A DNA stretch of 64,000 bases from a virus, in IMG/VR virus record IMGVR_UViG_3300042544_003795, positions 1 through 64,000 of that record; one strand, given 5' to 3'. How positions within the stretch are numbered: position 1 is the stretch's first letter; each line of letters opens with the position of its first letter. The notes below the pieces were generated by a model. That model ran no database searches and was not told the origin of the DNA. It saw only the letters and a list, made by a program, of their open reading frames with translations. The position numbers were made by a program, and so were the translations under genes. Shown piece by piece: positions 28,677 through 57,289 of this stretch.

Positions 28677-29005
28677 GCTGGTAAACTGTTAAGCTGCCAA
28701 ATTAGAGAAAGCAATAGAAATAGAGAAAGCAATAGCGCACGCTGCTCTAATAAAACACGCCGCTCAAATAGTGCACGCTTATTATAAACAAAGATACTTG
28801 TGAAAGAAAGTATAGTAGAAATGCTTTTATGTGGGTAAGAAGTTAGTGCCACCCTACCCTATATGAGTTTCCATAGTTTCCATAATTTTCATAAATAGGG
28901 GGTTCCCCTATGGCCGCTTAAAGTATTTTTTATTTGACACGCAAATGCGCAATAACTGTTACACCATGCGCCATGTTACACCATGCGACACGTTTTTTGT
29001 CAAGT

Positions 29006-29040
29006 AAAAAAAAAGGACACGGGGTGAACCCGTGTCCTTT
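29006..29040 (-). terminator. Rho-independent terminator
   Basis: GGACACGGG-GTGAA-CCCGTGTCC hairpin with a T-run on the minus strand. Confidence 0.75.
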
Positions 29041-29051
29041 CGTATTACACC

Positions 29052-29552: not shown

Positions 29553-29560
29553 AGGACTTC

Positions 29561-29589
29561 ACTATACACCCATTCCTTGAATCACGCAA
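29561..29589 (-). promoter_or_regulatory. Sigma70-type early promoter, near-leaderless (representative of cassette promoters)
   Basis: TTGCGT-17-TATAGT-8-ATG. Confidence 0.75.
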
Positions 29590-29663
29590 GCGAATTTTTC
29601 TAATTGTTTTCGTTTTTCTTGGCGTGCCAATGCATGTTACACCATGCACTATGTTACACCATG

Positions 29664-29828
29664 CGCGAGAATCTAGGGTCCATGCCACACTACCATGGCG
29701 CGCGCATTTGTCAAAAAGAAAAACGTAGGGAAAAACACTATGCGCGAGAATCTAGGGTCCATGCCACACTACCATGGCGCGCGCATTTGTCAAAAAGAAA
29801 AACGTAGGGAAAAACACTATGCGCGAGA
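29664..29828. repeat. 79-bp direct duplication (third copy near 30510)
   Basis: GCGCGAGAATCTAGGGTCC...AAACACTAT repeated with a 79-bp period. Confidence 0.85.
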
Positions 29829-30109
29829 AAAAGTGCACCATACGCTATGTTACACCATACGCTATGTTACACCATGCGGCACGTTTTTCGTCAAGTGAAA
29901 AAACACCTGATGCGCTAGTAGAGGAATCCCCTAGGCGACGGGCCCGGCTAGGGGATTCCCCTATGGCCGCTTAAAGTATTTTTTATTTGACACGCAAATG
30001 CGCAATAACTGTTACACCATTCGCCATGTTACACCATGTGCCATGTTACACCATGTGCCATGTTACACCATATGCCATTTTACACCATGCGACACGTTTT
30101 TTGTCAAGC

Positions 30110-30144
30110 AAAAAAAAAGAGCACGGGATACACCCGTGCTCTTT
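30110..30144 (-). terminator. Rho-independent terminator
   Basis: GAGCACGGG-ATACA-CCCGTGCTC hairpin plus T-run on the minus strand. Confidence 0.75.
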
Positions 30145-30155
30145 CGTATTACACC

Positions 30156-30380
30156 TTAGGACATCCTATACGTCTCACACTTCGGTTCTAGTATGGTATC
30201 CCATACCATATAGAGTCTACCGGGCTCCATTAGAGCCACGAAATTGTTGTTGCCAGTCCATATACTGGCGCTGATGTCGCCGGGCCGCTTGACCCTAAAA
30301 TGGCCGGGCTCAAGCGCCCAGCATGAAGGATACTTGCTCCATGTACGATACATGGGACGGTTAAAAGATAGATTTGTCAT
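30156..30380 (-). CDS. Cassette cargo family B (paralog of 35292)
   Basis: NRP..RTWS...SCW....HFRVKRPGD...YMVWDTI; TTGCGT-17-TAGACT-8-ATG. Confidence 0.8.
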   Translation of the reverse strand: MTNLSFNRPMYRTWSKYPSCWALEPGHFRVKRPGDISASIWTGNNNFVALMEPGRLYMVWDTILEPKCETYRMS

Positions 30381-30838
30381 AGGTCACTAGTCTAAAGCCT
30401 ATCGGCCAATCACGCAAGCGAATTTTTCTAATTCTTTTCATTTTTTTTGGCGTGCCAACGCATGTTACACCATGCACCATGTTACACCATGCACCATGTT
30501 ACACCATGTGCGAGAATCTAGGGTCCATGCCACACTACCATGGCGTGCGCATTTGTCAAAAAGAAAAACGTAGGGAAAAACACTATGCGCGAGAAAAAGT
30601 GCACCATACGCTATGTTACACCATACGCTATGTTACACCATGCGGCACGTTTTTCGTCAAGTGAAAAAACACCTGATGCGCTAGTAGAGGAATCCCCTAG
30701 GCGACGGGCCCGGCTAGGGGATTCCCCTATGGCCGCTTAAGGTATTTTTTATTTGACACACGAATAGGCAATTCGTGTTATACCATGCGCTATGTTACAC
30801 CGTGCGGCATGTTACACCATGCCGCATGTTACACCATC

Positions 30839-31165
30839 CTAGTAATCCATGTGACTATCCATCATGGCGCGCATCCACGGGAGATGATGCGCGTCATCGT
30901 CAAATGGAGAATCGCAACGCATGTTGCTAAAGAAGTCATCCGTGCTTTCGCATTTATGAACGTGCTTGCCGTGCTCGCTTAGGAACCAATGGATGTCTTC
31001 ATCGCACCAATCAGCTTCATCATCTAGGAAAGTGTAAACCTCGCATTGCCACAGTCTTTCGCCGTCTTCCTCAGCGAGCTCGATGGCAATAATAAGGTCT
31101 TTCTCGACTGTCCGGTCTGAGGTCAAATCCACTTGTGCCAAGTACGGGTTTTTATGGTTATTCAT
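30839..31165 (-). CDS. Cassette cargo family C, acidic (paralog of 34630 and 36158)
   Basis: NPYL...EVYTFLDDE...E.IHWFL.EH...NMRCDS; promoter 8 nt before ATG. Confidence 0.8.
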   Translation of the reverse strand: MNNHKNPYLAQVDLTSDRTVEKDLIIAIELAEEDGERLWQCEVYTFLDDEADWCDEDIHWFLSEHGKHVHKCESTDDFFSNMRCDSPFDDDAHHLPWMRAMMDSHMDY

Positions 31166-31491
31166 AGGACCTTAAGATAGCGCATGATTGCCATCCACGC
31201 AAGTGAATTTTTCTAATTGTTTTCATTTTTCTTGGCGTGCCTATGCATGTTACACCATGCACCATGTTACACCATGCACCATATTACACCATGCGGCACG
31301 TTTTTCGTCAAGTGAAAAAACACCTGATGCGCTAGTAGAGGAATCCCCTAGGCGACGGGCCCGGCTAGGGGATTCCCTTATGGTCGCTTAGGGTATTTTT
31401 TATTTGACACACGAATAGGCAATTCGTGTTATACCATGCGCTATGTTACACCGTGCGGCATGTTACACCATGCCGCACATGTTACACCATA

Positions 31492-31677
31492 TTAGGATAT
31501 CCAATATAATGTTCCGTTCAATGTCATCGACCCATCCCACCACTCATATCCAAGATACCTATTTTGGACGCGAAGAGAGCAAAAGTCTTGGCCCCTGCGG
31601 CCCACAATGCGGGTCACAGGAGAGGCGCCCCACATGGTGGGGATGGTGTATTCGCTCCGGGAAAGGTTAGGTTTCAT
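31492..31677 (-). CDS. Cassette cargo family D (paralog of 33568 and 34095)
   Basis: IPTMWG.S.VTRIV.RRGQD.C..EWWDG; start set to ATG 31677 from TTGCGT-17-TAGAGT-8-ATG. Confidence 0.8.
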   Translation of the reverse strand: MKPNLSRSEYTIPTMWGASPVTRIVGRRGQDFCSLRVQNRYLGYEWWDGSMTLNGTLYWIS

Positions 31678-32080
31678 AGAACCCCACTCTACAGCCGTTC
31701 CTTGAATCACGCAAGTGAATTTTTCTAATTGTTTTTATTTTTCTTGGCGTGCCAACGCATGTTACACCATGCACCATGTTACACCATGCACCATGTTACA
31801 CCATGCGGCACGTTTTTCGTCAAGTGAAAAAACACCTGATGCGCTAGTAGAGGAATCCCCTAGGCGACGGGCCCGGCTAGGGGATTCCCTTATGGTCGCT
31901 TAGGGTTGACATTATAAATAATTAAAAGATAGTACACCATGCGGCAAAGTAGCAAAGCGCAAAAGCTAGTACACCTTGCGCAAAAGTAGTCCGCCGTACT
32001 TTTTCCGTCACCTTAAAATAAAATAAAAATAAATTCATTAGAACTTGCGTTTTTCAGGATAGGGCTTATAATATAATCGT

Positions 32081-32584
32081 ATGAACACCACTACTCTATC
32101 TCACTCCGCTTTCCTTTCCATGCTTCAGGGAAAGCTTGGCGCTCTCATTATTGGGCTTGAAACCATCACTTCTCCTGAAGTGAAAAAGGGCGGTCCAGCC
32201 CATGTTCAAAAATACTCCAAAGGGAGGATTGTGGTCGGCGCATCCTACGCCAAAGCCGTCCGCGCACAAGGGGGGGAAGGCTTTGAGTCTTCTTCCCTTC
32301 CATGGGGGGAATGGCTGATTTCAAAGAAGGTAGTCACTCACAAGGGGGAATTTTATCTGGCCCATGTTCGCCGGAACAGTCCTCCCCTTAAATCGTTTTT
32401 CACCTCACAAGGTGAAATAATAGACAAGGCTGATATCAAGCCTTTCCTAAGAAAAGTGTACGAGAACAAGCGCCAAGCTGAAGCAGGGGTGACGGGAAAA
32501 AAGCAGGTTGATTTCAAGCTGATAAAATTCAGTTCTATAAAAACCATAAAATACGGGGGGAGAACTTTTGAACTAGTCTCATAA
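32081..32584 (+). CDS. Cassette cargo family A, inverted orientation
   Basis: Clear paralog of 29052; TTGCGT-16-TATAAT-8-ATG. Confidence 0.85.
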   Translation: MNTTTLSHSAFLSMLQGKLGALIIGLETITSPEVKKGGPAHVQKYSKGRIVVGASYAKAVRAQGGEGFESSSLPWGEWLISKKVVTHKGEFYLAHVRRNSPPLKSFFTSQGEIIDKADIKPFLRKVYENKRQAEAGVTGKKQVDFKLIKFSSIKTIKYGGRTFELVS

Positions 32585-32662
32585 ATTCCCCCTATCCTCC
32601 CCCCCCTACTTTCCCCATAAGGAGAGTAGGGGATAAAATTTCCATAACCGTCAGGATTTCCA

Positions 32663-32975
32663 TAATCGCTATTAAGCGCCATAGCTCTTCGAAGTTGTAG
32701 AATAACCATAAGAGCCGTAGCGGCTGAAAGCCGCATAATCGCTATTAAGCGCTATAGCTCTTCGAAGTTGTAGAATAACCATAAGAGCCGTAGCGGCTGA
32801 AAGCCGCATATTCTCTATTACGCGCCATAGCTCTTCGAAGTTGTAGAATAACCATAAGAGCCGTAGCGGCTGAAAGCCGCATATTCTCTATTACGCGCCA
32901 TAGCTCTTCGAAGTTGTAGAATAACCATAAGAGCCGTAGCGGCTGAAAGCCGCATATTCTCTATTACGCTCCATA
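32663..32975. repeat. 73-bp tandem satellite array 1 (about 4.3 units)
   Basis: GCTCTTCGAAG at 32684, 32757, 32830, 32903. Confidence 0.95.
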
Positions 32976-33073
32976 ACCCTTGGAACTTTTACAATAAGGA
33001 TTTCCCCTAGTCACGCTTAAGGTGAATAAGAGAGTGACGCACTATGAACGATTACGCCACTCTCTCATTCTTT

Positions 33074-33277
33074 TTAACTTGCTTGACGTTTCCTTAGTTC
33101 GTCAGCAAATGTCATGCCTTGGTCCCTGTAGTAGTTCTCATTATTGGGGGCTGGCAATGTCGCCATTGCTTCCGCCGCCAAGCGGCAATCCATTACAACC
33201 CAATTGAGGCTTTCAATTGAGAGAGTCTTGGCTTTAGCTTTCCAATAAATGAAGTCTAGTGACGTGGCTTGTTTCAT
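33074..33277 (-). CDS. Cassette cargo family E (paralog of 48818)
   Basis: ATS.DFI.W..KAKTLS...NYY.DQG.TFADEL; TTGCAG-16-TATAAT-8-ATG. Confidence 0.8.
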   Translation of the reverse strand: MKQATSLDFIYWKAKAKTLSIESLNWVVMDCRLAAEAMATLPAPNNENYYRDQGMTFADELRKRQAS

Positions 33278-33567
33278 GACACCTCATTATAACTCATTCG
33301 TTGTAACCTGCAAATGTTTTTTTCAATTACTTTAGTTTTTTTTACCATAGCAAATCTCATGCCAAGTAAAACATTTTTTCTGTCAAGCAAAAAAAATCCC
33401 TTACACGCTAGTAGAGGAATCCCCTAGGCGGCGCCCCCGGCTAGGGGATTTCCCTATGATAGCTTAAGGTATTTTTTAGTTGACACGCAAATGAGTAATG
33501 CGTGTTACACCATGCGCCATGTTACACCGTGCGACATGTTACACCATGCCGCACATGTTACACCATA

Positions 33568-33753
33568 CTAGGATATCCAATATAATGTGCCGTTTACTGT
33601 CATTGAGCCGTCCCACCACTCATATCCTAGATACCTATTGTTAACGCGAAGAGAGCAAAAGTCTTGGCCCCTACGGCCCACAATGCGGGTCACAGGAGAG
33701 GCACCCCACATGGTGGGGATGGAGTATTCGTTCCGGAAAAGGTTAGGTTTCAT
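33568..33753 (-). CDS. Cassette cargo family D
   Basis: Near-identical protein to 31492 with synonymous divergence. Confidence 0.8.
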   Translation of the reverse strand: MKPNLFRNEYSIPTMWGASPVTRIVGRRGQDFCSLRVNNRYLGYEWWDGSMTVNGTLYWIS

Positions 33754-34094
33754 AGAACCCCACTCTACAGCCGTTCCTTGAATCACGCAAGTGAATTTTT
33801 CTAATTGTTTTCATTTTTCTTGGCGTGCCAATGCATGTTACACCATGCACTATGTTACACCATACGCTATGTTACACCATGCACCATGTTACACCATACG
33901 CCATGTTTTTCGTCAAGTAAAAAAATTCCTTACGAGCTAGTAGAGGAATCCCCTAGCCGGGGCCGCCGCCTAGGGGATTCCCTTATGATTGCTTAGGGTA
34001 TTTTTTAGTTGACACGCAAATGCGCAATGCGTGTTACACCATGCCGCATGTTACACCATGCCGCATGTTACACCATGCGGCATGTTACACCTTG

Positions 34095-34286
34095 TTATCT
34101 GATGGTGTACATCTGTCCAAATATGGACATGGTGCCATCCCACCATTCCATGGCTATAAATATGCCACCAACATGAAGCTCGCAGTAATCTTGCCCCCGG
34201 CGGTTGACTACCCTAGTCACACGGGAAAGAGGACCCCACATGGTGGGGATAGGATGGAGTTGTGATCTGAATAGTCGTGGTATCAT
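34095..34286 (-). CDS. Cassette cargo family D (diverged)
   Basis: IPTMWG, RRGQDYC, EWWDG. Confidence 0.8.
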   Translation of the reverse strand: MIPRLFRSQLHPIPTMWGPLSRVTRVVNRRGQDYCELHVGGIFIAMEWWDGTMSIFGQMYTIR

Positions 34287-34629
34287 AGGACTTCAATATA
34301 CCACATGCCTTGAGAGACGCAAGCGAATTTTTCTAATTGTTTTCATTTTTCTTGGCGTGCCTATGCATGTTACACCATGCACTATGTTACACCATACGCT
34401 ATGTTACACCATGCATCATGTTACACCATACGCCATGTTTTTCGTCAAGTAAAAAAATTCCTTACGAGCTAGTAGAGGAATCCCCTAGCCGGGGCCGCCG
34501 CCTAGGGGATTACCCTATAATCGCTTAGGGTATTTTTTAGTTGACACGCGAATGCGCAATAACTGTTACACCATGCGCTATGTTACACCGTGCGGCATGT
34601 TACACCATGCCGCATGTTACACCATGCTC

Positions 34630-34965
34630 TTAATAATCCATTTCGACTTCGAATAGTTCGAACATCCATGGGAGACGACTCGCGCCATCATCCCATACGC
34701 TATCGCAACGCATGTTGCGAAAAAACTCGTCAGTACTTTCGTACTTGTGTATTATACCATGATGTTCCGTTAGGAACCAGTGAATTTCCTCGTCTCCCCA
34801 GTATTCTCCCACTTCGTCATCCAAGAATGTATATACTTCATCCTGAGTGACAGGATCAGAGTCTTCCATTGCCATTTGAAGCGCTATAACTATCTGCGCT
34901 TCAATCGTCTTCTCAGACGATAGGTTGATCAAGCTGAGATAAGGATGGTTACTGTTGTTTATCAT
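34630..34965 (-). CDS. Cassette cargo family C
   Basis: Paralog of 30839. Confidence 0.8.
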   Translation of the reverse strand: MINNSNHPYLSLINLSSEKTIEAQIVIALQMAMEDSDPVTQDEVYTFLDDEVGEYWGDEEIHWFLTEHHGIIHKYESTDEFFRNMRCDSVWDDGASRLPWMFELFEVEMDY

Positions 34966-35291
34966 CGGACCTCACTATACATCCGTTCCTTGAATCACGC
35001 AAGTGAATTTTTCTAATTGTTTTCATTTTTCTTGGCGTGCCAACGCATGTTACACCATGCACCATGTTACACCATGCACCATGTTACACCATGCGGCATG
35101 TTTTCTGTCAAGCAAAAAAATCCCTTACGCGCTAGTAGAGGAATCCCCTAGCCGAGCCCGCCGCCTAGGGGATTACCCTATAATCGCTTAGGGTATTTTT
35201 TAGTTGACACGCAAATGCGCAATGCGTGTTACACCATGCGCCATGTTACACCGTGCGACATGTTACACCATGCCGCACATGTTACACCACC

Positions 35292-35522
35292 CTAGGACAT
35301 CCTGTATATTCGACACTCAAAGTTTGACCCTATGGTGTCCCACACCATGTACATTTTCCCGCTTTCCATCAGACCGATAAATCGGCCTTCCGCCGTCCAC
35401 ATGTTCAGATTTACATCTCCCGGTCTTTTGACTCTGAAATGTGGCTGGTCAATTGACCAGCAGGAGACTGTGGACGACCATGTGCGAAAAGAAGGACGGT
35501 TGGCAGTAGTTGTGTTGCTCAT
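35292..35522 (-). CDS. Cassette cargo family B
   Basis: Paralog of 30156. Confidence 0.8.
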   Translation of the reverse strand: MSNTTTANRPSFRTWSSTVSCWSIDQPHFRVKRPGDVNLNMWTAEGRFIGLMESGKMYMVWDTIGSNFECRIYRMS

Positions 35523-35800
35523 AGGACTTCACTATACATCCGTTCCTTGAATCACGCAAGCGAATTTTTTTAATTGTTTTCTTTTTTCTTGGCGTGCCAA
35601 TGCATGTTACACCATGCACCATGTTACACCATACGCTATGTTACACCATGCACCATGTTACACCATACGCCATGTTTTTCGTCAAGTGAAAAAACACCTG
35701 ATGCGCTAGTAGAGGAATCCACTAGGCGACGGGCCCGGCTAGGGGATTCCCCTATGGCCTCTTAAGGGATTCCCCTAAGTTATAAAAACCAGCATCCCTA

Positions 35801-36131
35801 TAATCTCTATTAAGCGCTATAGCTCTTCGAAGTCGTAGAGTAGCTATAAGAGCCATAGCGGCTGAAAGCCGCATAATCGCTATTAAGCACTATAGCTCTT
35901 CGAAGTCGTAGAGTAGCTATAAGAGCCATAGCGGCTGAAAGCCGCATAATCGCTATTAAGCGCCATAGCTCTTCGAAGTCGTAGAGTAGCTATAAGAGCC
36001 ATAGCGGCTGAAAGCCGCATAATCGCTATTAAGCGCCATAGCTCTTCGAAGTTGTAGAATAACCATAAGAGCCGTAGCGGCTGAAAGCCGCATAATCGCT
36101 ATTAAGCGCTATAGCTCTTCGAAGTCGTAGA
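35801..36131. repeat. 73-bp tandem satellite array 2 (about 4.5 units)
   Basis: GCTCTTCGAAG at 35822, 35895, 35968, 36041, 36114. Confidence 0.95.
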
Positions 36132-36157
36132 AAATCTATAATGAATGTTACATCATC

Positions 36158-36421
36158 TTAAGAGTCGTAAAACTCTTTTAGAAATTTCTCCGGAGTTTCT
36201 TTGTATTTTTTATAAATCCTGCGGTCGTCTAAGACGCATAAAATTTCCTCGTGACAGATATATTCTCTTATATCCAATAGATAATAAAAGACCTCCCACA
36301 TTTGGACTTGATCATCGTCCTCATATGCCATTTGCACAACAATCTCCAAATCCGCAAAAGCTTCTTCGAGATTGTTCAAAGAACACTGCTGGAGGTAGGG
36401 GTTCTTATTGGTGTTCATCAT
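36158..36421 (-). CDS. Cassette cargo family C (diverged)
   Basis: NKNPYL...EV.Y.LLD...EEI; start at 36421 from TTGCGT-17-TATGTT-8-ATG. Confidence 0.7.
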   Translation of the reverse strand: MMNTNKNPYLQQCSLNNLEEAFADLEIVVQMAYEDDDQVQMWEVFYYLLDIREYICHEEILCVLDDRRIYKKYKETPEKFLKEFYDS

Positions 36422-36741
36422 CAGGTCACAACATACAGCCGACTCTCTAATCACGCAAGAGTTTTTTTCAATCGTTTTTGTTTTTTTTAGCGCAGTAATA
36501 CATGTTACACCATGCTACATGTTATATCATGGTACCCTAACCGTTAGTAAGGGATTCCCCTACGCGGCGTCCCCGTCTAGGGGATTCCTCTATGGAACGC
36601 TAAGGGAATTTTTTAGTTGACACGCAAATGCGCAATCCGTGTTACACCATGTCATATGTTACACCATGCGACGCGCCAAGATAAATGAAATAAATCGAAA
36701 ATATCCGTTGCGTCTTTCGCGGCCTGTGTTATAGTAAGGAC

Positions 36742-36948
36742 ATGAAAGAAACCCACTATCTCCTATCTGGCCTAAAACCCACAGGCGAGCACCTCGCCCT
36801 TTGGGCTTTAGAGTCCATAGTTAAGCTGTCCCGCCTCCACGGTCATCCCTTAGAAAGACCGGAAGCCACGGAGTGGCTGTCACAGTCTACAGAAAAGTCT
36901 CTTGACCGAGACTGGGTAGAATGGCGATTAGATGGCATCTTTGACTAA
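36742..36948 (+). CDS. Cassette cargo, hypothetical
   Basis: AAAATATCCGTTGCGT..TATAGT promoter directly before ATG. Confidence 0.7.
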   Translation: MKETHYLLSGLKPTGEHLALWALESIVKLSRLHGHPLERPEATEWLSQSTEKSLDRDWVEWRLDGIFD

Positions 36949-37031
36949 GGTGCTATCTCCCTCCCTTAAAAAGTTAAAAATAATCAAAAGGAACTCGACA
37001 CACCCCGAGTTCTATGGTAAACTCCTATACT

Positions 37032-37556
37032 ATGAAATCTCTACTCTTTATAGCCTTTATCTGTTTCACAGCTTTTGCTTATGGCATCTCTTCACCGAGT
37101 GTCAATGGTAAAAGGTTTGTCCCTGACTATTTTCAGATTGCGCTTGACGGCGTAAAGAGTTTTGAGGGTTTCAGAGAGAAGCCATATAAATGTCCGGCGG
37201 GAGTGCGGACTATAGGATACGGCTTTACTGGCCCTTTAGCTAAGGTTAAAAATATCAGTAAAGAAGACGCAGATCTTCTCTTGACTAAAGAGCTTCACCA
37301 ATATGTCTTGACTGTTGAAGATAATGTGAAAGTCCCCTTGACCCGCAATCAGCTTTATGCACTGGCCAGTTTCACATACAACTGCGGAGAAGGAAACCTT
37401 CGCCAGCTTGTCAACGGAAAAAATAGGCTAAACTCCGGAAACTATAAATCAGTTGAGAGGTTGTTACCTAAGTATCGTAAAGGCGGCGGGAAGGTTCTGA
37501 AAGGATTGCAAAAGAGGCGGGAGTGGGAAGTTAAGCTGTGGAAAGGTGAGCTTTAA
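37032..37556 (+). CDS. GH24 phage lysozyme with N-terminal signal/SAR segment
   Basis: EGFREKPYKCPAGVRTIGYG, ALASFTYNCG, GL.KRR.WE; start 37032 from TCGACA-17-TAAACT-8-ATG. Confidence 0.9.
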   Translation: MKSLLFIAFICFTAFAYGISSPSVNGKRFVPDYFQIALDGVKSFEGFREKPYKCPAGVRTIGYGFTGPLAKVKNISKEDADLLLTKELHQYVLTVEDNVKVPLTRNQLYALASFTYNCGEGNLRQLVNGKNRLNSGNYKSVERLLPKYRKGGGKVLKGLQKRREWEVKLWKGEL

Positions 37557-37764
37557 AAGTCAAGCGCCGCCTCCCCCTAAGGGGGAGTAGGGGATTCCCC
37601 TACGCGGCGTCCCCGGCTAGGGGATTCCCTTATGGTCGCTTAGGGGAATTTTTCGCTTGACCCATAAAAACGCAATAGTTGTTACACCATACGACGCGCA
37701 AAAATAAACGAAAACAATTGAAAATATCCGTTGCGTTCCTCACTGCATGTGATATAATGAAATC

Positions 37765-38037
37765 GTGAAACTTGACTCTCTTATCGCCCAGCTCGAAGCT
37801 CTCAAGGCCATGTACGGCCCAGACATAGAGGTCGCCTTCAAGGCGGCGTCAGAAACACAAAGTACGCCAATCACAAGCGCCGCCTTCAATTTCGAGGAGG
37901 CAACCAGAGATTGGATTATATCCCTAGCCTCGGAGGTCGAAGAGGATGAATGCGACTATTCCGGCGAATGGGACGAAGCAGAAAACGACTACGAGAGGAG
38001 AATGGAGGGATGGATGGACTCCAGAGGGGAGGAGTAG
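37765..38037 (+). CDS. Cassette cargo, acidic hypothetical
   Basis: GTG start after TTGCGT..TATAAT. Confidence 0.7.
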   Translation: MKLDSLIAQLEALKAMYGPDIEVAFKAASETQSTPITSAAFNFEEATRDWIISLASEVEEDECDYSGEWDEAENDYERRMEGWMDSRGEE

Positions 38038-38251
38038 TCAAGGGAAAAAATCTAAGAACCCCCCTAAGAGGGGGTAGGGGATTCCCCTACGCGGCGTCCC
38101 CGGCTAGGGGATTCCCCTATGGTACGATAAGGGAATTTTTTAGTTGACTCTCAAATGCGCAATACATGTTACACCATGCGGCGAGCCAAGATATATGAAA
38201 TAAATCGAAAATATCCGTTGCATTTTTTCCTCCCTGTGATATACTGATTAC

Positions 38252-38479
38252 ATGAGTTTACCACATCTTAAGTATATACATTTATCACGATTCGATAAAT
38301 TGGACTTCTTGATTAACAATTGCGGCGAAGGTTTTGTTAAAGAGTGCACTCTCTTGACCGAATTAGTCGGGTACATGTCTGACTCCGACTTTTCTGATTT
38401 CTTTGATAAAATCTGCCGTGAGTGGGGTATTGAGGTATCAGAAGAAATCTGCTGGGATTGGGAGACTGAAGGAGTCTAA
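38252..38479 (+). CDS. Cassette cargo family F (paralog of 42355)
   Basis: RF.KLDFLI.NC...FVKEC.LLTELVGYMSDSDFSDFFDK. Confidence 0.8.
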   Translation: MSLPHLKYIHLSRFDKLDFLINNCGEGFVKECTLLTELVGYMSDSDFSDFFDKICREWGIEVSEEICWDWETEGV

Positions 38480-38699
38480 GGGGAGACGATTAGAAAGTCA
38501 AGAAAACAACTCCCCTAAGGGGGAGTAGGGGATTCCCCTACGCGGCGTCCCCGGCTAGGGGATTCCCCTATGGTACGATAAGGGAATTTTTAGTTGACTC
38601 ATAAATGCGCAATGCGTGTTACACCATCCCACGACAAAAAAAAGAAAAAGAATTGAAAATATCCGTTGCTTTCCTGAAACGCTGGACTATAGTCAAGAC

Positions 38700-39113
38700 A
38701 TGACTCTTCAATCACCACCCGCTATCATCAAAGTTCCTTCCAACGTCTTGGCCGATGCCATGATCAACCGCTACTTCATCGCTGGCTTCCTGAACTGTTC
38801 AGAAGAGCAAATCTCTGACTGGGATATCAACTGGGAGAAAGGACACCTTTCTGTCACCTTTATCCCTGAATCCGATTTTTGGGGAGACTCTCTCAGGGAG
38901 TACCTCAACATAGAGTTCCAGCTTTTCGGAGAGGACATAGAAGGAAACGTCTGGGAGTTTCCCAACTCAGACAGAGTTCTAGAGTGGTTCTCTCTAGAGA
39001 AGAAAGGCCCCATGGGATCATGGAACGCGGGAGTAGCGGCTCACAAAGACAGCATGGAATGGGTGTGCTGGATGATAGCAAATAGCAAGGACGGCCTACT
39101 GAAAGATATGTAA
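38700..39113 (+). CDS. Cassette cargo, acidic hypothetical
   Basis: Start moved to ATG 38700 after TTGCTT..TATAGT. Confidence 0.7.
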   Translation: MTLQSPPAIIKVPSNVLADAMINRYFIAGFLNCSEEQISDWDINWEKGHLSVTFIPESDFWGDSLREYLNIEFQLFGEDIEGNVWEFPNSDRVLEWFSLEKKGPMGSWNAGVAAHKDSMEWVCWMIANSKDGLLKDM

Positions 39114-39337
39114 AGTTGTTACACCAAGCAAGTCAAATAAAAAACTCCCCTAAGGGGGAGTAGGGGATTCCCCTACGCGGCGTCCCCGGCTAGGGGATTC
39201 CCCTATGGTCGCTTAGGGGAATTTTTATGTTGACTCATGAAAAAATAATTCATGTTACACCATCGCCTCCAAAGAAAAAGAAAAACAATTCAAAATATCC
39301 GTTGACTCTCTCTTGGCTTGTGTTATAGTATGGGACT

Positions 39338-39541
39338 ATGAATACCCTATATGTTGTCGAGGCCGAGTCCGGAGTTCACCACGGGAATTGCGAGCTAGGA
39401 GTGGGCCTAAGCCGCGCCGCCGCCATATGTGATGCCTACGGCCCCGGAGGTAAGCTCCCCCGCCATGCGTGGGTCAATATCGTCTCCCGCGAAAAGGAGC
39501 CGAAAAGGTTCGAGCGCCTAAAGGCTCAAAATGGCCTTTAG
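39338..39541 (+). CDS. Cassette cargo, hypothetical
   Basis: TTGACT..TATAGT promoter before ATG. Confidence 0.7.
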   Translation: MNTLYVVEAESGVHHGNCELGVGLSRAAAICDAYGPGGKLPRHAWVNIVSREKEPKRFERLKAQNGL

Positions 39542-39660
39542 TGTCAAGCGAAAAACACCCCTAGGACACCCTAGGGGATTTCCCTACGCGGGGACGCCGC
39601 CTAGGGGATTCCTCTATGATTGCTTAGGGGATTTGCCTAGGGTATAAAAACCATCATTCC

Positions 39661-39912
39661 TATAATCACTATTAAGGTAAATAGCTCTTCGAAGTTGTAT
39701 AATCACTATTAAAGGCTATAGCTCTTCGAAGTTGTAGAATATCCATAAGAGCCGTAGCGGCTGAAAGCCGCATATTCTCTATTACGCGCCATAGCTCTTC
39801 GAAGTTGTAGAATACCCATAAGAGCCGTAGCGGCTGAAAGCCGCATATTCTCTATTACGCGCCATAGCTCTTCGAAGTTGTATAATAACTATTAAGAGCT
39901 ATAACCCTTCAA
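39661..39912. repeat. Satellite array 3 (37-bp monomer then 73-bp units)
   Basis: GCTCTTCGAAG at 39684, 39721, 39794, 39867. Confidence 0.9.
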
Positions 39913-39917
39913 ACTTT

Positions 39918-40244
39918 TCAAATCAATCCCTTCACAATTAACCATGAAGGAGAACCATAACTATCCGTTCCGTCAGGTTCAACCGTTTCACCTAGGATAG
40001 ACTTGCAATTGCCGTTACTGTCCCATCGTGATAGACTTGACACAGAAGGTTCCTTCTTCCCTAGCATTTTAATAGCCGTACCATTGGAGATTTTAAACTC
40101 TGACTCTGAACCGTACACTTTGACACGAGGACGATGACCGATAGCAGTCTCTTCCCATCTAATAGAGAATTTGTTCCCCGCTTTCAGGACACTGCCGTCT
40201 TTCATTTTGATTTCAGTTTTATTGATAAATGAGTGAGTTTTCAT
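39918..40244 (-). CDS. Hypothetical protein
   Basis: C....G..VEPDG.D..G.PSWL motif seen in phage early proteins. Confidence 0.7.
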   Translation of the reverse strand: MKTHSFINKTEIKMKDGSVLKAGNKFSIRWEETAIGHRPRVKVYGSESEFKISNGTAIKMLGKKEPSVSSLSRWDSNGNCKSILGETVEPDGTDSYGSPSWLIVKGLI

Positions 40245-40301
40245 GTATTCAGTTTACCACACGGTTTTCAGATAGCAAAAAGTATTTTCAATTATTTTGT
40301 T

Positions 40302-40601
40302 TTATTGATAAAAGAAATTTTTGGCCCTCATCACAAGAGAAAGATATTGTGAGATTCTGATATGATGAAAAAGTCCACGATCAGGAGATTTTAAATAACC
40401 TTTAATTCCACCGTACTTAGCTATTGACTTATCCGGGTTACGTGGTGGATACAACGGGTTACCCTTGCCTTCTATCTGACCCCAGATATCTACTGTATCG
40501 CCCCACACGGCGGCAGTCAGTCGGATAGTTCCACCCTGTAGTGATGGAACCGTTAGGGTGACGTGATATGGGTGAAGGCCGGGTTGCAATTCAGGTTTCA
40601 T
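40302..40601 (-). CDS. Hypothetical protein
   Basis: 99 aa ORF. Confidence 0.6.
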   Translation of the reverse strand: MKPELQPGLHPYHVTLTVPSLQGGTIRLTAAVWGDTVDIWGQIEGKGNPLYPPRNPDKSIAKYGGIKGYLKSPDRGLFHHIRISQYLSLVMRAKNFFYQ

Positions 40602-40603
40602 TT

Positions 40604-40846
40604 TTAGTCGCTGAGAAGTTCATCTCTTTCCTCATTGTAAATAGACAAACATGAAGGCCTTTCAAAATCAATATCGCCTAACGATAAATCGCCTAAAGAG
40701 ACTTTTTTCCATTCTACGTTGTCAAGCGTATAATGAAAAACGTCCCACTTGACATAGCAATCTTTGACTTGATCCCAGCTATCGACTGGAATATCGACAT
40801 CTGTTGAAGAGCCAACCGAATAAGACGCATCAATTGTGATTTTCAT
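40604..40846 (-). CDS. Cargo family G (paralog of 41927)
   Basis: MK.....SY.V.SS...D.P......KD......V.HY.L....W.K..L. Confidence 0.7.
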   Translation of the reverse strand: MKITIDASYSVGSSTDVDIPVDSWDQVKDCYVKWDVFHYTLDNVEWKKVSLGDLSLGDIDFERPSCLSIYNEERDELLSD

Positions 40847-40976
40847 TTTATAATAAGTTAAGAACTAGTGAAAGCTAAACATCGCTTTCATGTGATTAGT
40901 ATATCACAGCCATCGAAAAACTCAACGGATATTTTTAATTCTTTTGATTTATTTTAAGAGTGTACTATACTAAAGC

Positions 40977-41153
40977 ATGAGCCTAGACAAAGCAATCGAA
41001 CACAATAAGGAGAAAAGAGCACCGTTCCGGAAAAGTAAACGCTTTGATAGAACTTGCCGCAATCATGGAAAGTGTCCATACTGTGAAGGGAACAGAACTT
41101 TTCAATCAGAAAAAGAACTTCAGAGAATAGAAAGCTTTGGAGAAGAAGAATAG
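40977..41153 (+). CDS. Small Cys/His-containing phage protein (58 aa, not in ORF track)
   Basis: MSLDKAIEHNKEKRAPFRKSKRFDRTCRNHGKCPYCEGNR. Confidence 0.7.
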   Translation: MSLDKAIEHNKEKRAPFRKSKRFDRTCRNHGKCPYCEGNRTFQSEKELQRIESFGEEE

Positions 41154-41337
41154 AGAATGTCAAGCACCGCCTCCCCTTAAGTGGGAATAGGGGATTACCC
41201 TATGCCTACCCCCCCGCATAGGGGATTCCCTTATAGTGTCTTAGGGTTGACTTGGCACGCCGCCTGCTTGTGTAAAGAAAATTGAAAACAATCGAAAATA
41301 TCCGTTGCAATCTAATACCCCTGTGACATAATAAAGC

Positions 41338-41577
41338 ATGAAACTATCTAAACTGATTAAGGTTTTGCAAAATGCGAAAAAAGAACTAGGGGACGTTCCT
41401 GTTATGGTGATGGATGAAGAAATGGGGAGTTGGGAATATCTCTCTGAGGTTCTCAAACTTCATCCTTATACTGGACCTTACGGGTGTATGGATAGAACCA
41501 AACCCGCAGATTCGATTGGCCTTGTTAGAAATAAAGGTTTCTCATCTAAAGACCTGCTACTAGGACAGAGAGATTAA
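41338..41577 (+). CDS. Cassette cargo, hypothetical
   Basis: MKLSKLI..LQ..K...GDVPV; N-terminus resembles 37765. Confidence 0.7.
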   Translation: MKLSKLIKVLQNAKKELGDVPVMVMDEEMGSWEYLSEVLKLHPYTGPYGCMDRTKPADSIGLVRNKGFSSKDLLLGQRD

Positions 41578-41630
41578 AAAGAATTGAAAATATCCGTTGC
41601 ATCTATCCTAAAGTGTGATATAGTAAAGTC

Positions 41631-41909
41631 GTGAAAGATGATCTTCTTTACATACCTCGCCTTGCTGAACTTTACGATTGGTTTCGTATTGAGGAACAGA
41701 ATGGTGAGATGATTGCTTGCGGTGGAATATTTCCAGCTTATGAGATAAAGGCTGGCCAGCGATGGCAAGGTTCTAGTGGTCACACTGTTCTAGTCGATGA
41801 AGTGGATTCCTATTCAGTTCATTACTCATGGGACGAACAGGGAGTAAAGAAAACCCATAAAAAATCCCACTTCGCTTTCCAGTGCCGGTATTGTCTTGTT
41901 TTATCCTAA
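41631..41909 (+). CDS. Hypothetical protein
   Basis: FAFQCRY C-terminal motif; own promoter. Confidence 0.65.
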   Translation: MKDDLLYIPRLAELYDWFRIEEQNGEMIACGGIFPAYEIKAGQRWQGSSGHTVLVDEVDSYSVHYSWDEQGVKKTHKKSHFAFQCRYCLVLS

Positions 41910-41926
41910 TCTAACCTAATAACAAA

Positions 41927-42175
41927 ATGAAAGTTGAAATTGTCACATCATACAGAGTATTCTCATCTGCCTTTATCGACCTCCCTATTGAAAATATAAA
42001 GGAAATTAAAGATTACTTTATAATCGACAATGTTTTGCATTACTCATTGAAAGATGAAAAATGGGAAAAAATCACCTTGCCAGAGGGTGAGGATGAATTC
42101 GAAAAATCTAGTGAAGTGAAATTCTATAGTGCTGAGTCTCACCAAACAGTAATGAAAATGTCTAAGTCTATCTAA
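41927..42175 (+). CDS. Cargo family G
   Basis: Paralog of 40604. Confidence 0.65.
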   Translation: MKVEIVTSYRVFSSAFIDLPIENIKEIKDYFIIDNVLHYSLKDEKWEKITLPEGEDEFEKSSEVKFYSAESHQTVMKMSKSI

Positions 42176-42354
42176 GTCAAGCTCCTCCTCCCCCTAAGGG
42201 GGAGTAGGGGATTCCCCTACGCGGCGTCCCCGGCTAGGGGATTCCCCTATAGCGTCTTAGGGTTGACTTGGCACGCCGCCTGCTTATGCAAAGAAAATTG
42301 AAAACAATTGAAAATATCCGTTGCTCTTTTCCTTCCCTGTGATATACTAATTAC

Positions 42355-42549
42355 ATGAGAACACGATTCGAAAAACTAGACTTCCTGATTGAAAATTGCA
42401 ACGAGACTTTTGTTAAAGAGTGCGTACTCTTGACCGAGCTCGTAGGCTATATGTCGGATTCCGACTTCTCCGACTTTTTTGACAAAGTTTGTAGGGAGTG
42501 GGACATTCGCATAGGACTTTATTGGGACAGTACAGAAGAAACTGAATAA
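42355..42549 (+). CDS. Cassette cargo family F
   Basis: Paralog of 38252. Confidence 0.8.
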   Translation: MRTRFEKLDFLIENCNETFVKECVLLTELVGYMSDSDFSDFFDKVCREWDIRIGLYWDSTEETE

Positions 42550-42769
42550 AAGTCAAGCGCCGCCTCCCCGAAAGGGGAGTAGGGGATTCCCCTACGCGGC
42601 GTCCCCGGCTAGGGGATTCCCCTAGGATGCTTTAGTAGATTACCCTAGGGTAGCTTAGGGTTGACAAATTTTTAGGCAAAGTTGGCACGCCTTCTGCTAT
42701 GCAAAGAAAAATGCAATTAATCGAAAGTATTTGTTGATTGATTGCTTAATAGGGTTATTGTGTGGGACT

Positions 42770-43783
42770 ATGAATAAAGAAATTGCATCTTGCTTCTCCT
42801 CCGTCGTTGGCCAATCCCAGATTGTCGCCAATCGTATCCTGTCCCATAGCGCCTTCGCTGCGGGCAATAATTCGCCCTATAGCGTTTGTTACACCGGAGC
42901 TGCGGGCTTAGGTAAAACTCAATTGCTCCGCGCGGAGTTAGCGGCCCGCGCCATGGCAATCCAGATTCGATTTGGACGTGAAGCCAATGTTTTCATGCTC
43001 CGGTCACCTCAGGAAATCCGCCTTGCTGGCGAGGCATTCTTTGAGTTTATCGGCAATGTCTCGGACGGTGACGGCGTTGTTATCGACGAGCTTCATGAGA
43101 TTGAAATCTCGTCTACCGTTCAACTCCGGAAACTTAAGCTCATCTTGAAGGGCTTGCTTGACAACGGGCAAGGCAAAATCCGTTCCGTGAAGATTGACGA
43201 TGATACGGTCATCTCCCGGCCTAAAGAGGAAATCTTTTTCGCCGCTGGCACTAACTTCCCAGAGAAAATCAAGGACGGTTCCGCCATCATCTCCCGGTTT
43301 GGTGGAGAGACGCCGCTGGACCTTTATACAGAGGATGAATTGACCAAAATTCTTAAACTCATGAGTGAGTCCGCCGGGCTTCGTGTGAACGAGAATACGC
43401 TTCTCCTTCTCGCCAAGTGTGGCCGTGGAACTGCCCGCCCACTAGAATCAATCGTTAGCTACCTTAGCAAAGTAGCATCAATCTCAGAGAAGACGACTAT
43501 CAATCGCGCGGAGGCACTAGAGGCAATGCGGGCTTTGAGTTTGTTTCCCCTTGGCGTTTCAAAGCGGGAAATCTCAATCCTTATCCGCAGCAAGGGCCAA
43601 GGCTTAGCGGTCAGAATGTTGCCAGTGATTTTTGCCGTCGAGCCGAAATCAGTCAATCAAAGCGTTAGCTTTCTTTGTGCTTATGGCTTCCTCAGCCTAC
43701 GGGGCGGAGTTGTCAATCTGTCCCCTCGCGGCGCGGCCTACTTGGACCAGTTAAAGGCTGAAAAGTTCTCTTTAGAATCCTAG
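42770..43783 (+). CDS. RuvB-like AAA+ ATPase
   Basis: VVGQ, GAAGLGKT Walker A, VIDELHEI Walker B, SRFG, Y..DEL..IL, RGTAR sensor II, winged-helix C-terminus; start set at ATG 42770. Confidence 0.8.
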   Translation: MNKEIASCFSSVVGQSQIVANRILSHSAFAAGNNSPYSVCYTGAAGLGKTQLLRAELAARAMAIQIRFGREANVFMLRSPQEIRLAGEAFFEFIGNVSDGDGVVIDELHEIEISSTVQLRKLKLILKGLLDNGQGKIRSVKIDDDTVISRPKEEIFFAAGTNFPEKIKDGSAIISRFGGETPLDLYTEDELTKILKLMSESAGLRVNENTLLLLAKCGRGTARPLESIVSYLSKVASISEKTTINRAEALEAMRALSLFPLGVSKREISILIRSKGQGLAVRMLPVIFAVEPKSVNQSVSFLCAYGFLSLRGGVVNLSPRGAAYLDQLKAEKFSLES

Positions 43784-43822
43784 GCCTTTTATCCCTCCCT
43801 TCTTTCTTACCTTACTTACCTT

Positions 43823-44149
43823 ATGAATGTTTCAATCTCCTACTCGCCATCGTCTCTCTCAGATTTTCTCGCCGCTTTGGAAGCGGTAAAAGGCATGAAC
43901 GGGAAAAGCGTTTCCGTTTCGCCAGCTTCTCTGAACTGTCCTGTTTCAAAGTACGTAGAAAAAACTGGAGCTTCCCGTTACCGTCGCACTCCGGAAGGTT
44001 GCCAATCCGGGCTTTCTAATTTGGACGACCTGAAAAAGCGGGCTTTGCTAGGCGACGCCATAGCGGCAGAATGTCTAGGCGACGAAATCCCGGAAAGTGA
44101 TTCTGAGTTGTCAAGCGAAGATAATTCGCCGATTGAAGCGATTTTCTAA
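43823..44149 (+). CDS. Hypothetical protein co-transcribed with the RuvB-like gene
   Basis: 108 aa ORF followed by a terminator. Confidence 0.65.
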   Translation: MNVSISYSPSSLSDFLAALEAVKGMNGKSVSVSPASLNCPVSKYVEKTGASRYRRTPEGCQSGLSNLDDLKKRALLGDAIAAECLGDEIPESDSELSSEDNSPIEAIF

Positions 44150-44158
44150 TTGACAGGA

Positions 44159-44190
44159 AAGGGCGGCTGATTTTCAGCCGCTCTTTTTTT
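44159..44190 (+). terminator. Rho-independent terminator
   Basis: GCGGCTGA-TTT-TCAGCCGC followed by a T-run. Confidence 0.8.
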
Positions 44191-44365
44191 TGCATTGTCA
44201 ACCCTTAATCTACCCTAGAGGAATCCATTAGAGCACCCTAGGGGAATCCCCTAGCCGGGGACGCCGCGTAGGGGAATCCCCTAGTAAGGCCTAAGGTTTA
44301 CATCTTAATGAAACATAATACACCTTATTCATCCCCCCCCCATAAGGGGGAGGTATTTTGATATG

Positions 44366-45064
44366 TTACACCTGCACCACGAAACCAGAGTTGTCTTTTC
44401 TGGCTTTGCCTTTATCGACAAGCCCAACCACCACGCCCCTAGTGTCGAGGAAACGAAGGTCATTCTTGTCACCGTTCACAACCGGCGTTCCATGCCAGCT
44501 CTCGGGCAGTGAGCGACGGAAAACAACCGCCACGTTTCCACCTCGTGAGCGGATGGCGTGAACGTGCCGCTCGTTTGACTCACTGCGGGAGAATGTCAAA
44601 CTGTAGTTGGCGGGCATTTTCCCGTCGAGAAAATCCATCATGCGTTTGTACCCCTTGGTGTAATCGTACCAAGTAACCTCAGGGAAAAGCTCGAACAAGT
44701 TTTTCCCGTCCTGAACGTCGAGCGATTCCCACGGGATATCGCTGGTAAGGTTAAGCCGGATGGCCAACCGCATCCCATTTTTCTTGGCTTTCTTAATAGC
44801 CGCTTGAATTTCCTTAATTAGTTGTTTAGAGAATAGGTCAAAATTCTCCTTCAAGAGTTTAGTCTTGGCGATTCTAGCCGCTTGAACCGTCGAGAATGCA
44901 CCATGGCCTGAGGTGTTTAAACAGGAGAAGGTGCAACCACGGCTCGCCCAAGTGCATACGTTATAACCCGACAGATTGGCGGGAGCCAAATGGATGCCGA
45001 GAGTCGTCCAGCCTTCCTTCGTGCCCTTCATGATTTTTGCGTTCGCCGTAGTGAGTAATTTCAT
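44366..45064 (-). CDS. GP88-family phage protein (Cys-cluster, radical-SAM-like)
   Basis: LAPA..SG.NVC..AS.GC...CL..SG, RLN.TSDI.W, YDYTK, DLRFLD. Confidence 0.75.
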   Translation of the reverse strand: MKLLTTANAKIMKGTKEGWTTLGIHLAPANLSGYNVCTWASRGCTFSCLNTSGHGAFSTVQAARIAKTKLLKENFDLFSKQLIKEIQAAIKKAKKNGMRLAIRLNLTSDIPWESLDVQDGKNLFELFPEVTWYDYTKGYKRMMDFLDGKMPANYSLTFSRSESNERHVHAIRSRGGNVAVVFRRSLPESWHGTPVVNGDKNDLRFLDTRGVVVGLVDKGKARKDNSGFVVQV

Positions 45065-45419
45065 CGTTCACTATAATAGCCCGCTTTCCACCGATTGCAA
45101 ATTTATTTTCGATTAATTCTACTTTTCTCACATAGCGGATAGCGTGCCAAGTCAACCCTTAATCAACCCTAGGGGAATCCATTAGAGCACCCTAGGGAAA
45201 TCCCCTAGCCGGGGCCGCCGCATAGGGGAATCCCCTAGTAGTCGTTAAGGTTAAAATTTACTTGACTTTTTAATATGCCTATCACCCCTAATAGGGTTTT
45301 ATAGTAAATATAAAGTATTGAAAAATGCAATGCTCTCTATGGATATTATAGTGGGCACTGAGATTGCGGAGACTATGGAGAGTATGGCAATAATAGTTAT
45401 AGCCGCCATAAATAGCGTG

Positions 45420-55094: not shown

Positions 55095-55146
55095 AACTTT
55101 ATTATATCACAGGTCACGAACAAAGCAAAGAATATTTTATTTTTTA

Positions 55147-57285: not shown

Positions 57286-57289
57286 AAGA

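Follow-up and report, generated by a model that had tools for sequence, protein, structure and literature searches.

Double-palindrome modules between the gene cassettes of an uncultured lake phage, a probable homology block for cassette exchange

We present here an analysis of a stretch of 64,000 nucleotides from an uncultured freshwater (lake) phage (IMG/VR virus record IMGVR_UViG_3300042544_003795, positions 1 to 64,000), hereafter called the window, and in particular of the paired 15-bp palindromes TAGGGGAWTCCCCTA which stand, as two arms around a short spacer, between the small genes of a cassette array. Our analysis of 122 distinct elements shows that the linkage between the upstream and the downstream gene breaks at the core made of arm, spacer and arm, in accordance with the suggestion of an earlier note on this DNA that these sites are the crossover points of the array. 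With moderate confidence we explain the whole as a terminator/promoter cassette array similar to the promoter-early stem-loops (PeSLs) of T4-type phages, in which the double palindrome would be a shared block of homology, and in which the few spacers found in the opposite orientation would be minute inversions of a hairpin loop.

The paired palindromes and cassette exchange

Both strands of the window were searched with the pattern TAGRGGAWTCCCCTA, at most one mismatch being allowed, and 100 shuffles were used as the control. The search gives 83 strand-hits, all between 28896 and 45237, against 0.04 expected (with a maximum of 1 in the 100 shuffles). The pairs described by the earlier note are real, exactly 20 in number and all within 29919-45237. 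The period of 30 bp given there applies to 19 pairs with a 15-nt spacer, while one pair (41188) has a 16-nt spacer and a period of 31 bp. The spacers listed are also found as described, with GGCGACGGGCCCGGC at 29934, 30700, 31351, 31863 and 35725, and GGCGGCGCCCCCGGC at 33427. In addition, extra single or third arms are present at 28896, 35763, 39625 and 45170. None of the 20 cores lies within a gene, and each begins about 30-50 nt past a stop codon.

Each palindrome pair is the core of a nested palindrome of about 105 nt, and one such module lies between every two cassettes. On the whole the module is composed of GTCAA, an A-run or a GC stretch, a C-half (TTCCCCTAA), arm 1, a GC-rich spacer, arm 2, a G-half (TTAGGGGAA), a T-run and TTGAC, the last box lying about 23-24 nt outside the arms on both sides as counted in the alignment. 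The half-site of the arm, TAGGGGA, has perfect dyad symmetry with a free central base, and the alignment shows the arms to be near-invariant across all spacer types. Two families of modules are distinguished. In family A, which accompanies the minus-strand cassettes at 29-36 kb, the T-run type of flank is present on both sides, so that the unit is an almost perfect 105-nt palindrome. In family B, which accompanies plus-strand cassettes, the flanks are polar, and a small extra hairpin (CTCCCCCTAAGGGGGAG) takes the place of the T-run flank upstream; the full module at 38495-38600, for example, reads GTCAAG, small hairpin CTCCCCTAAGGGGGAG, arm, spacer, arm, TAAGGGAAT, T-run and TTGAC. The two families place the element differently relative to the direction of the gene, yet the element is unchanged. 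Along the array the cassettes lie on the plus strand at 36.5-44 kb and on the minus strand at 29-36 kb and 44.2-45.2 kb. Two other readings of the repeat were dropped: a G-quadruplex or i-motif would have loops of 19-32 nt between its G-runs, and an insertion like a miniature inverted-repeat transposable element does not agree with a repeated unit that runs about 150 nt past the palindrome and is present in every intergenic space of the array.

The search for relatives was carried out in two ways. A search with the large terminase found 23 IMG/VR contigs, among them L020/L044, where the terminase is 92% identical and the sequence reaches the same locus, with 19 pairs of the same arms and a 21-nt spacer. 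A scan of metagenomes for two exact arms 10-30 nt apart found 32 contigs, and arms are present in 33 related contigs overall, while the same scan of 185,579 prokaryote species genomes gives 0 matches; the element therefore belongs to these phages and is not a host repeat family. The exact pair with the 15-nt spacer and the family-A arm pair have no match in IMG/VR, which leaves the family-A loci with no orthologues for comparison, and neither 15-mer is found in the literature text searched for its letters. Of 196 pairs, 58 have a spacer of 15 nt, 12 one of 16 nt, 19 one of 20 nt and 100 one of 21 nt, and five sequence types occur. The arms in this family are accordingly 30, 31, 35 or 36 bp apart from centre to centre, a difference of about half a helical turn, which removes as a general property the alternative proposal of the earlier note, namely tandem operators three helical turns apart.

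For the exchange point, we compared pairs of elements sharing only the upstream gene, only the downstream gene, or neither, the last taken as background. Over the 20 nt that precede arm 1, identities are 0.87 and 0.83 for pairs with only the upstream gene in common, 0.55 and 0.69 for pairs with only the downstream gene in common, and 0.58 and 0.65 for the background. At +21 to +30 after arm 2 the corresponding values are 0.39, 0.69 and 0.43. The identity of the upstream-gene-only pairs is thus raised up to arm 1 and at background from about 20 nt after arm 2, and that of the downstream-gene-only pairs is above background already from +1 after arm 2. This shows that a left flank stays linked to the gene upstream of it and a right flank to the gene downstream of it, and therefore that cassette exchange maps to the core. 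The linkage breaks inside arm-spacer-arm, or no further than 20 nt past it; the small number of arm variants limits the resolution of crossover points to the core as a whole.

The gene content of the relatives gives the same picture. In seven contigs, the number of different cassettes found between two widely conserved ones is zero, one or two; several cassettes are duplicated, and in L080 the homologue of the gene at 38252-38479 stands after, not before, the homologue of the gene at 38701-39113; related phages hence differ by insertion, loss, duplication and permutation of cassettes at the cores. The core is the sole long block of near-perfect identity common to all cassettes. On its left side the array ends in one arm with the right-hand flank, fused to the AT-rich backbone, and this supports the core as the exchange point. 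Cores with three arms are found in the window at 35710-35777 and 39572-39639, and in L087 with two different spacers in a row.

The cores also evolve together within a genome. The spacer length is the same in 84% of within-contig pairs and in 34% of pairs between contigs, and orthologous loci with 86-93% identical flanks can differ in spacer type (11 such pairs). Taken together, these two results show that the cores of one genome are homogenised by conversion, the tracts of which end in the arms.

As a separate observation, three arms in a row occur at L087:464-540 and L092:993-1068, separated by spacers of two different types, one of 16 nt and the other of 15 nt, and this looks like a hybrid core from an exchange between arms of two spacer families.

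Spacers in opposite orientation

The flipped spacers which the earlier note had pointed out at 33956, 34488 and 35151 hold up, with their flanks unchanged. Those at 33956 and 34488 match the spacer at 33427 in 14/15 positions as reverse complement and in 11/15 directly, and that at 35151 matches the one at 29934 in 13/15 and 8/15 respectively. In all three, arm 1 retains its own asymmetric marks (TAGAGGAAT), which indicates that the spacer alone has turned. The case of 39587, claimed likewise, is weak when the window copy is taken alone (12/15 as reverse complement and 11/15 direct against the family-B consensus, the central 9 nt being an exact reverse complement). It gains its strength from the orthologues: the flip is common to those in L080, L095, L099 and L079, and the spacers in L095, L099 and L079 are reverse complements in 15/15 positions with flanks unchanged. 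The elements at 44239 and 45193, described as reversed, do belong to whole reversed cassettes, with minus-strand genes and arm centres of A instead of T, and the spacer at 44254 is a reverse complement in 15/15 positions. Flips of the spacer are also found in relatives, at L095:10757 against the family-B consensus (15/15 as reverse complement, 8/15 direct) and at L044:5016 against L044:4077 (20/21 and 10/21), where arm centres and flanks are kept in both. A possible larger flip together with the whole arms (L097:4765 / L109:6358) was not counted, since a reversed cassette whose flanks are symmetric would look the same.

With the direction of the gene as reference, 109 of 126 distinct elements have the majority orientation and 17 the opposite one, at about eight loci, and among elements with polar flanks the orientation of the spacer follows that of the flanks by about 85 to 3. 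Orthologous pairs were then defined by different assemblies and one high-scoring segment pair of at least 500 bp and at least 85% identity, with at least 150 bp on each side. Among the 132 pairs so obtained, 0 differ in orientation, and the 11 with different spacer types are those counted above. Spacer flips are therefore rare and fixed per locus in this comparison among assembled contigs, in which low-frequency switching could go unseen. The three flipped family-A copies of the window, moreover, are neighbours and lie in duplicated cassettes. These two results do not agree with active flipping of the loxP/dif kind, which the earlier note had suggested, and they are the outcome which it had itself named as contrary to that idea. 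A flipped spacer between symmetric arms is by itself no evidence of a recombinase switch.

Predicted folds, promoters and surroundings of the array

The predicted folds are strong. As RNA, the module folds as one long hairpin of -47 to -54 kcal/mol (z -3.2 to -6.9), the reversed copy at 44239 being weaker (z -2.1); as DNA, it folds with -24 to -27 kcal/mol (z -3.9 to -6.3). For the full 105-nt palindrome at 30655-30760 the values are -54 and -27 kcal/mol. A capacity for cruciforms, suggested before, is in accordance with these predictions. Alternatively, the module may be seen as a row of three abutting hairpins that have one stem (TCCCCTA/TAGGGGA) in common, in which the 15-bp palindromes would be the seams between neighbouring hairpins and the spacer the middle loop. 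A terminal hairpin directly followed by U5-6 is seen in four copies, with -14.4, -11.7, -9.2 and -6.1 kcal/mol; the first of these energies is that of core 39161, where the 3' half of arm 2 and TTAGGGGAAT make a hairpin of 10 bp before UUUUU. The region has 46 terminator-like sites, against 18.4 ± 4.2 in shuffles. From the hairpins, the T-runs and this enrichment, the modules may act as terminators or insulators. A scan of the array with Rfam gives only a chance-level CsrC match, far below threshold, and no family matches the element.

After each unit follows a conserved scaffold of TTGACnC-N-TGTTACACC, then GAAAATATCCGTTGC, then TGnTATAnT. The last of these is an extended -10 box, located 6-8 nt before the start codon (for example at 36727-36744, 38237-38254 and 42340-42357), and no Shine-Dalgarno sequence is found before the cassette genes, so that their mRNAs are expected to have no leader or almost none. 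A -10 box is present in every cassette, and the gene-proximal predicted promoter is about 100-130 nt downstream of the core. The box TTGAC-N17-TGTTAC, by comparison, is without A2 and T6 of the sigma-70 -10 element. In the complete cassette 38571..39160 the order is T-run, TTGACTC-N-TGTTACACC box, GAAAATATCCGTTGC, -10 box TATAGT 6 nt before the ATG, gene, and a flank of GTCAA and the small hairpin. The GAAAATATCCGTTGC promoter scaffold recurs at 55-58 kb of the window, there with no palindromes. Genes that lie inside the array in L044 (10164-12982) have their homologues in the window outside the array, at 57289-58106 and 54907-55113 on the minus strand.

The array (Table 1) is a hyperplastic region of small, mostly ORFan genes, and every palindrome site falls within 28.9-45.2 kb. 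Its DNA (7 kb, megablast against GenBank phages) gives no match. About 24 of its open reading frames (ORFs) were scanned, and family matches above threshold were found for three only, namely a lysozyme, a GP88-family protein and a distant RuvB-like ATPase; the remaining scanned ones have none or weak sub-threshold matches. The RuvB-like gene at 42731-43783 matches PDB RuvB chains with E 1e-10 over residues 53-310, while TIGR00635 gives 57 bits, far under the cutoff. Its segment (42625-44238) clusters with a segment of equal length in the related contig L099. The cassette segments adjoining cores 33941 and 34473 cluster together as well.

Table 1. Positions of the array, its edges and cores, and of two cassette features in the window
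Feature	Position	Strand	Remark
Whole cassette array	28896..45237	.	about 20 small-gene cassettes, double-palindrome modules between
Array left edge	28896..28910	+	single arm (TAGGGGGTTCCCCTA) and T-type right flank, directly adjoining AT-rich backbone
Core, family A (symmetric flanks, minus-strand genes)	29919..29963	-	spacer GGCGACGGGCCCGGC
Core, family A	30685..30729	-	spacer GGCGACGGGCCCGGC
Core, family A	31336..31380	-	spacer GGCGACGGGCCCGGC
Core, family A	31848..31892	-	spacer GGCGACGGGCCCGGC
Core, family A	33412..33456	-	spacer GGCGGCGCCCCCGGC
Core, family A	33941..33985	-	flipped spacer GCCGGGGCCGCCGCC; 14/15 reverse complement of 33427
Core, family A	34473..34517	-	flipped spacer; spacer and 40-nt left flank identical to 33941
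Core, family A	35136..35180	-	flipped spacer GCCGAGCCCGCCGCC; 13/15 reverse complement of 29934
Core, family A	35710..35777	-	third arm at 35763, 8 nt after arm 2
Core, family B (polar flanks, plus-strand genes)	36548..36592	+	spacer CGCGGCGTCCCCGTC
Core, family B	37588..37632	+	spacer CGCGGCGTCCCCGGC; 32 nt past lysozyme gene stop codon
Core, family B	38075..38119	+	
Core, family B	38526..38570	+	
One complete cassette between two cores	38571..39160	+	gene ATG 38701 to 39113
Core, family B	39161..39205	+	
Core	39572..39639	+	flipped spacer (CGCGGGGACGCCGCC); third arm at 39625
Core	41188..41233	+	16-nt spacer of another type (TGCCTACCCCCCCGCA)
Core, family B	42205..42249	+	
Core, family B	42580..42624	+	
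Cassette gene, distant RuvB-like AAA+ ATPase	42731..43783	+	context only
Core of minus-strand cassette	44239..44283	-	whole cassette reversed
Core of reversed cassette, array right edge	45170..45237	-	degenerate extra arm at 45170

Other repeats accompany the cores. The stretch 28957-39264 contains 68 copies of TGTTACACCATG, most of them arranged in 17-bp tandem runs. All are on the plus strand, even in the minus-strand cassettes at 29-36 kb, where the runs flank a gene on both sides. Tandem repeats of 73 bp, each with the hairpin GCGGCTGAAAGCCGC, are located at 32672-32955, 35810-36093 and 39709-39846, and come after some "terminal" cores (31848, 35710 and 39572). Cores 35710 and 39572, which have a third arm, are followed by a TATAAAAACC box.

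The cassette genes (28900-45300) also form a compositional island relative to the rest of the window. The G+C content of the array is 43-49% against about 30-34% in most of the backbone, and at third codon positions it is 0.45-0.65 for the majority of array genes; for the majority of backbone genes, among them the terminase and the glycosyltransferases, it is 0.22-0.35. Such an island may stem from a foreign gene pool or, where recombination is as frequent as here, from GC-biased conversion, and it raises the question of where the gene pool comes from. The backbone includes the large terminase at 16400-18277, three tRNAs, glycosyltransferases and PhoH. The terminase has at best 23-26% identity to that of any GenBank phage, and judged by this sequence the phage is not T4-like and its terminase is only distantly related to those of known phages. 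Directly upstream of it lies a protein with an ERCC4/XPF-family nuclease domain (15480-16397, plus strand), possibly a structure-specific nuclease of the phage. Just past the right edge of the array are a DUF932 / TIGR03299 "phage/plasmid-like protein" (47648-48685, minus strand) and an Api92-like ferredoxin-fold protein (49604-50092, minus strand). Among about 60 ORFs scanned in the window, which is 64 kb of a much larger genome, no integrase, resolvase, transposase, RAYT or recombinase is found. No integrase adjoins the array, no Y1 transposase is found in the window, and no helix-turn-helix (HTH) or other DNA-binding protein is identified among the array genes scanned.

Explanations and known systems

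In the explanation that we favour, cassettes would be exchanged at the 45-51-bp core through the ordinary homologous recombination of the phage or through gene conversion, as has been proposed for PeSLs. The core is near-identical over 45-51 bp within a genome and over 15 bp between genomes with different spacers, and the scaffold is far more diverged, so that exchange is expected to concentrate in the core even with no special enzyme. Since each arm is palindromic, two arms are at once direct and inverted repeats. As direct repeats, they would give single-arm and triple-arm cores by unequal exchange. As inverted repeats, they would allow template switching across the hairpin, which would turn the spacer and leave the flanks untouched; conversion from a core copy on the other strand would be a second route to the same result. 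The hairpins and the T-run would insulate the cassettes from each other or terminate transcription between them.

Several observations weigh against this explanation. Tests of covariation for the long-hairpin and the three-hairpin structures give the same values as shuffled alignments, which shows that the stems are conserved as sequence and not as structure; protein recognition or gene conversion would explain such conservation no less well than an RNA terminator. The arms are almost invariant even across genomes in which the spacer has been replaced, and neutral homology gives no obvious explanation for this. Invariance with no covariation is the main point for protein recognition and the main weakness of a purely RNA-structural reading. 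In many copies, furthermore, there is a C-A mismatch in the hairpin next to the T-run, and in family B 21 nt separate the end of the strongest hairpin from the T-run.

A dedicated site-specific system, integron-like or loxP-like, is an unlikely alternative. A phage protein would here bind the arms and exchange strands in or beside the spacer, and because partner sites must share a spacer, the cores of one genome would have the same spacer type. The mapping of the exchange point to the core, the arms that are invariant and do not covary, the concerted evolution of spacers within a genome and the half core at the array edge all speak for it, and the authors of the PeSL studies speculated that the GGGG...CCCC stem might be the target of a protein. 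However, none of the enzymes named above is found among the window ORFs scanned (64 kb), the spacer of 15-21 nt varies even within one contig, each arm is palindromic in itself, and the cassettes have promoters of their own, unlike what is generally known of integron cassettes. The single-arm and triple-arm cores are as expected from unequal homologous exchange, for which an identity of 45-51 bp suffices in phage recombination systems (PMC2839356).

In a related form of this idea, to which we give a similarly low probability, the TAGGGGAWTCCCCTA arms would be read by a putative phage protein that starts exchange or conversion at the cores, maybe together with the RuvB-like ATPase of the array and the XPF-like nuclease upstream. 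If true, this would be a phage-borne capture of cassettes with no integrase, where the genome-specific spacer sets which sites pair.

It is likewise improbable that the 15-mers are operators for a dimeric regulator of the phage or the host, which would switch all cassettes, with exchange as a by-product of the sequence conservation. The TAGGGGA half-sites with their perfect dyad symmetry and free central base, the conservation at the level of sequence with no covariation, and the TTGAC box about 23-24 nt outside the arms on both sides are suggestive of operators. But the distances of 30, 31, 35 or 36 bp between arm centres in relatives keep no helical phase, the gene-proximal promoter lies about 100-130 nt downstream, the TTGAC-N17-TGTTAC box is without A2 and T6 of the sigma-70 -10 element, and no HTH or other DNA-binding protein is identified among the array genes scanned. 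The operator reading is compatible with the explanation favoured here. The least supported rival, and a very improbable one, is an RNA device in which G- and C-halves pair with either neighbour to give a terminator or a read-through fold, or a long duplex cut by RNase III: it can appeal to several mutually exclusive folds of similar energy and to a U-run after the last G-half, but there is neither covariation nor an Rfam family match, control of read-through has no obvious use where each cassette has its own promoter, and families A and B place the same unchanged element differently against gene direction.

Among known systems, the PeSLs of T4-type phages are the nearest to this array. They are composite units of stem-loop and promoter between the ORFans of hyperplastic regions, with stems that are "generally GGGG...CCCC", and are regarded as modular shuffling sites; relatives bearing them differ by indels at the units, recombination between units gives mini-circles, and less than 50 bp of homology suffices for T4 recombination (Arbiol et al. 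2010, PMC2839356; Comeau et al. 2014, PMC4122927). The present array shares with them a repeated unit of stem-loop and promoter-like sequence between small, mostly ORFan genes of a hyperplastic region, the GGGG...CCCC stems, relatives that differ by gene insertion, deletion or replacement at the units, and recombination between units as the proposed motor. However, the phage is not of T4 type, and its unit far exceeds a PeSL in size, being a nested palindrome in which two identical palindromes of 15 bp enclose a GC-rich loop. Exchange is located at the core here and in the zone from -10 to ATG in PeSL mini-circles. While a PeSL has its stem-loop directly upstream of a sigma-70 early promoter and a Shine-Dalgarno sequence, the promoter here is about 100 nt beyond the core, with no Shine-Dalgarno sequence, and the genes are apparently leaderless. 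In addition, spacer flips and genome-wide homogenisation of spacers are not described for PeSLs.

For the flips, the closest parallel is in plastids, where hairpin-associated small inversions were reportedly described by Kelchner and Wendel in 1996. In such minute inversions, loops of 4-50 bp between short inverted repeats invert recurrently (PMC12371153). As here, the loop occurs in either orientation with stems and flanks fixed, and the event is recurrent but rare. The plastid loci, however, are single-copy organelle loci, while the same hairpin is present about 20 times in each phage genome, and for this reason a flip could here also come about by conversion from a copy on the other strand.

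The loxP, FRT and dif sites have arms of 11-13 bp, which are inverted repeats of each other and not self-palindromes, around a spacer of fixed length (6-8 bp). The symmetric arms, the asymmetric centre and the exchange of DNA at the site are alike. The loxP/dif-like layout proposed by the earlier note is nevertheless not supported, because the spacer here is of variable length between 15 and 21 nt (15, 16, 20 or 21), the 15-bp arms are self-palindromic, the orientation is fixed per locus, and no recombinase is found among the approximately 60 window ORFs scanned. In integrons, attC sites are conserved in structure and not in sequence, and promoterless, co-oriented cassettes form an array beside intI, attI and Pc. 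An array of single-gene cassettes with an imperfect palindrome at each boundary as the exchange point is common to both systems; here, however, the conservation is one of sequence, the cassettes come with promoters of their own and occupy both strands, and next to the array no integrase is found. The REPINs or BIMEs (REP doublets) of bacteria consist of two short palindromes in inverted orientation around a spacer, form a long hairpin, and are intergenic and highly repeated (PMC3116915, PMC3337134). All of these features recall the present element. The differences are that no RAYT transposase is found in the window, that the 185,579 prokaryote species genomes give 0 matches, and that the elements are confined to one array and tied to the cassette scaffold instead of being dispersed.

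Therefore, the array works like PeSLs but falls outside their narrower definition, and it lacks the tested defining features of loxP-type sites, integrons and REPINs. Particular to it are a double-palindrome core with a mapped exchange point, a genome-wide replacement of the loop, and rare inversions of the loop. The exchange zone, which is diffuse in PeSLs, is narrowed in these unrelated uncultured lake phages to a double palindrome of 45-51 bp, whose arms are kept letter for letter across genomes while the central loop is replaced genome by genome. With this array, nature thus provides a clean system in which to ask if short homology is enough for such shuffling or if a dedicated protein is required.

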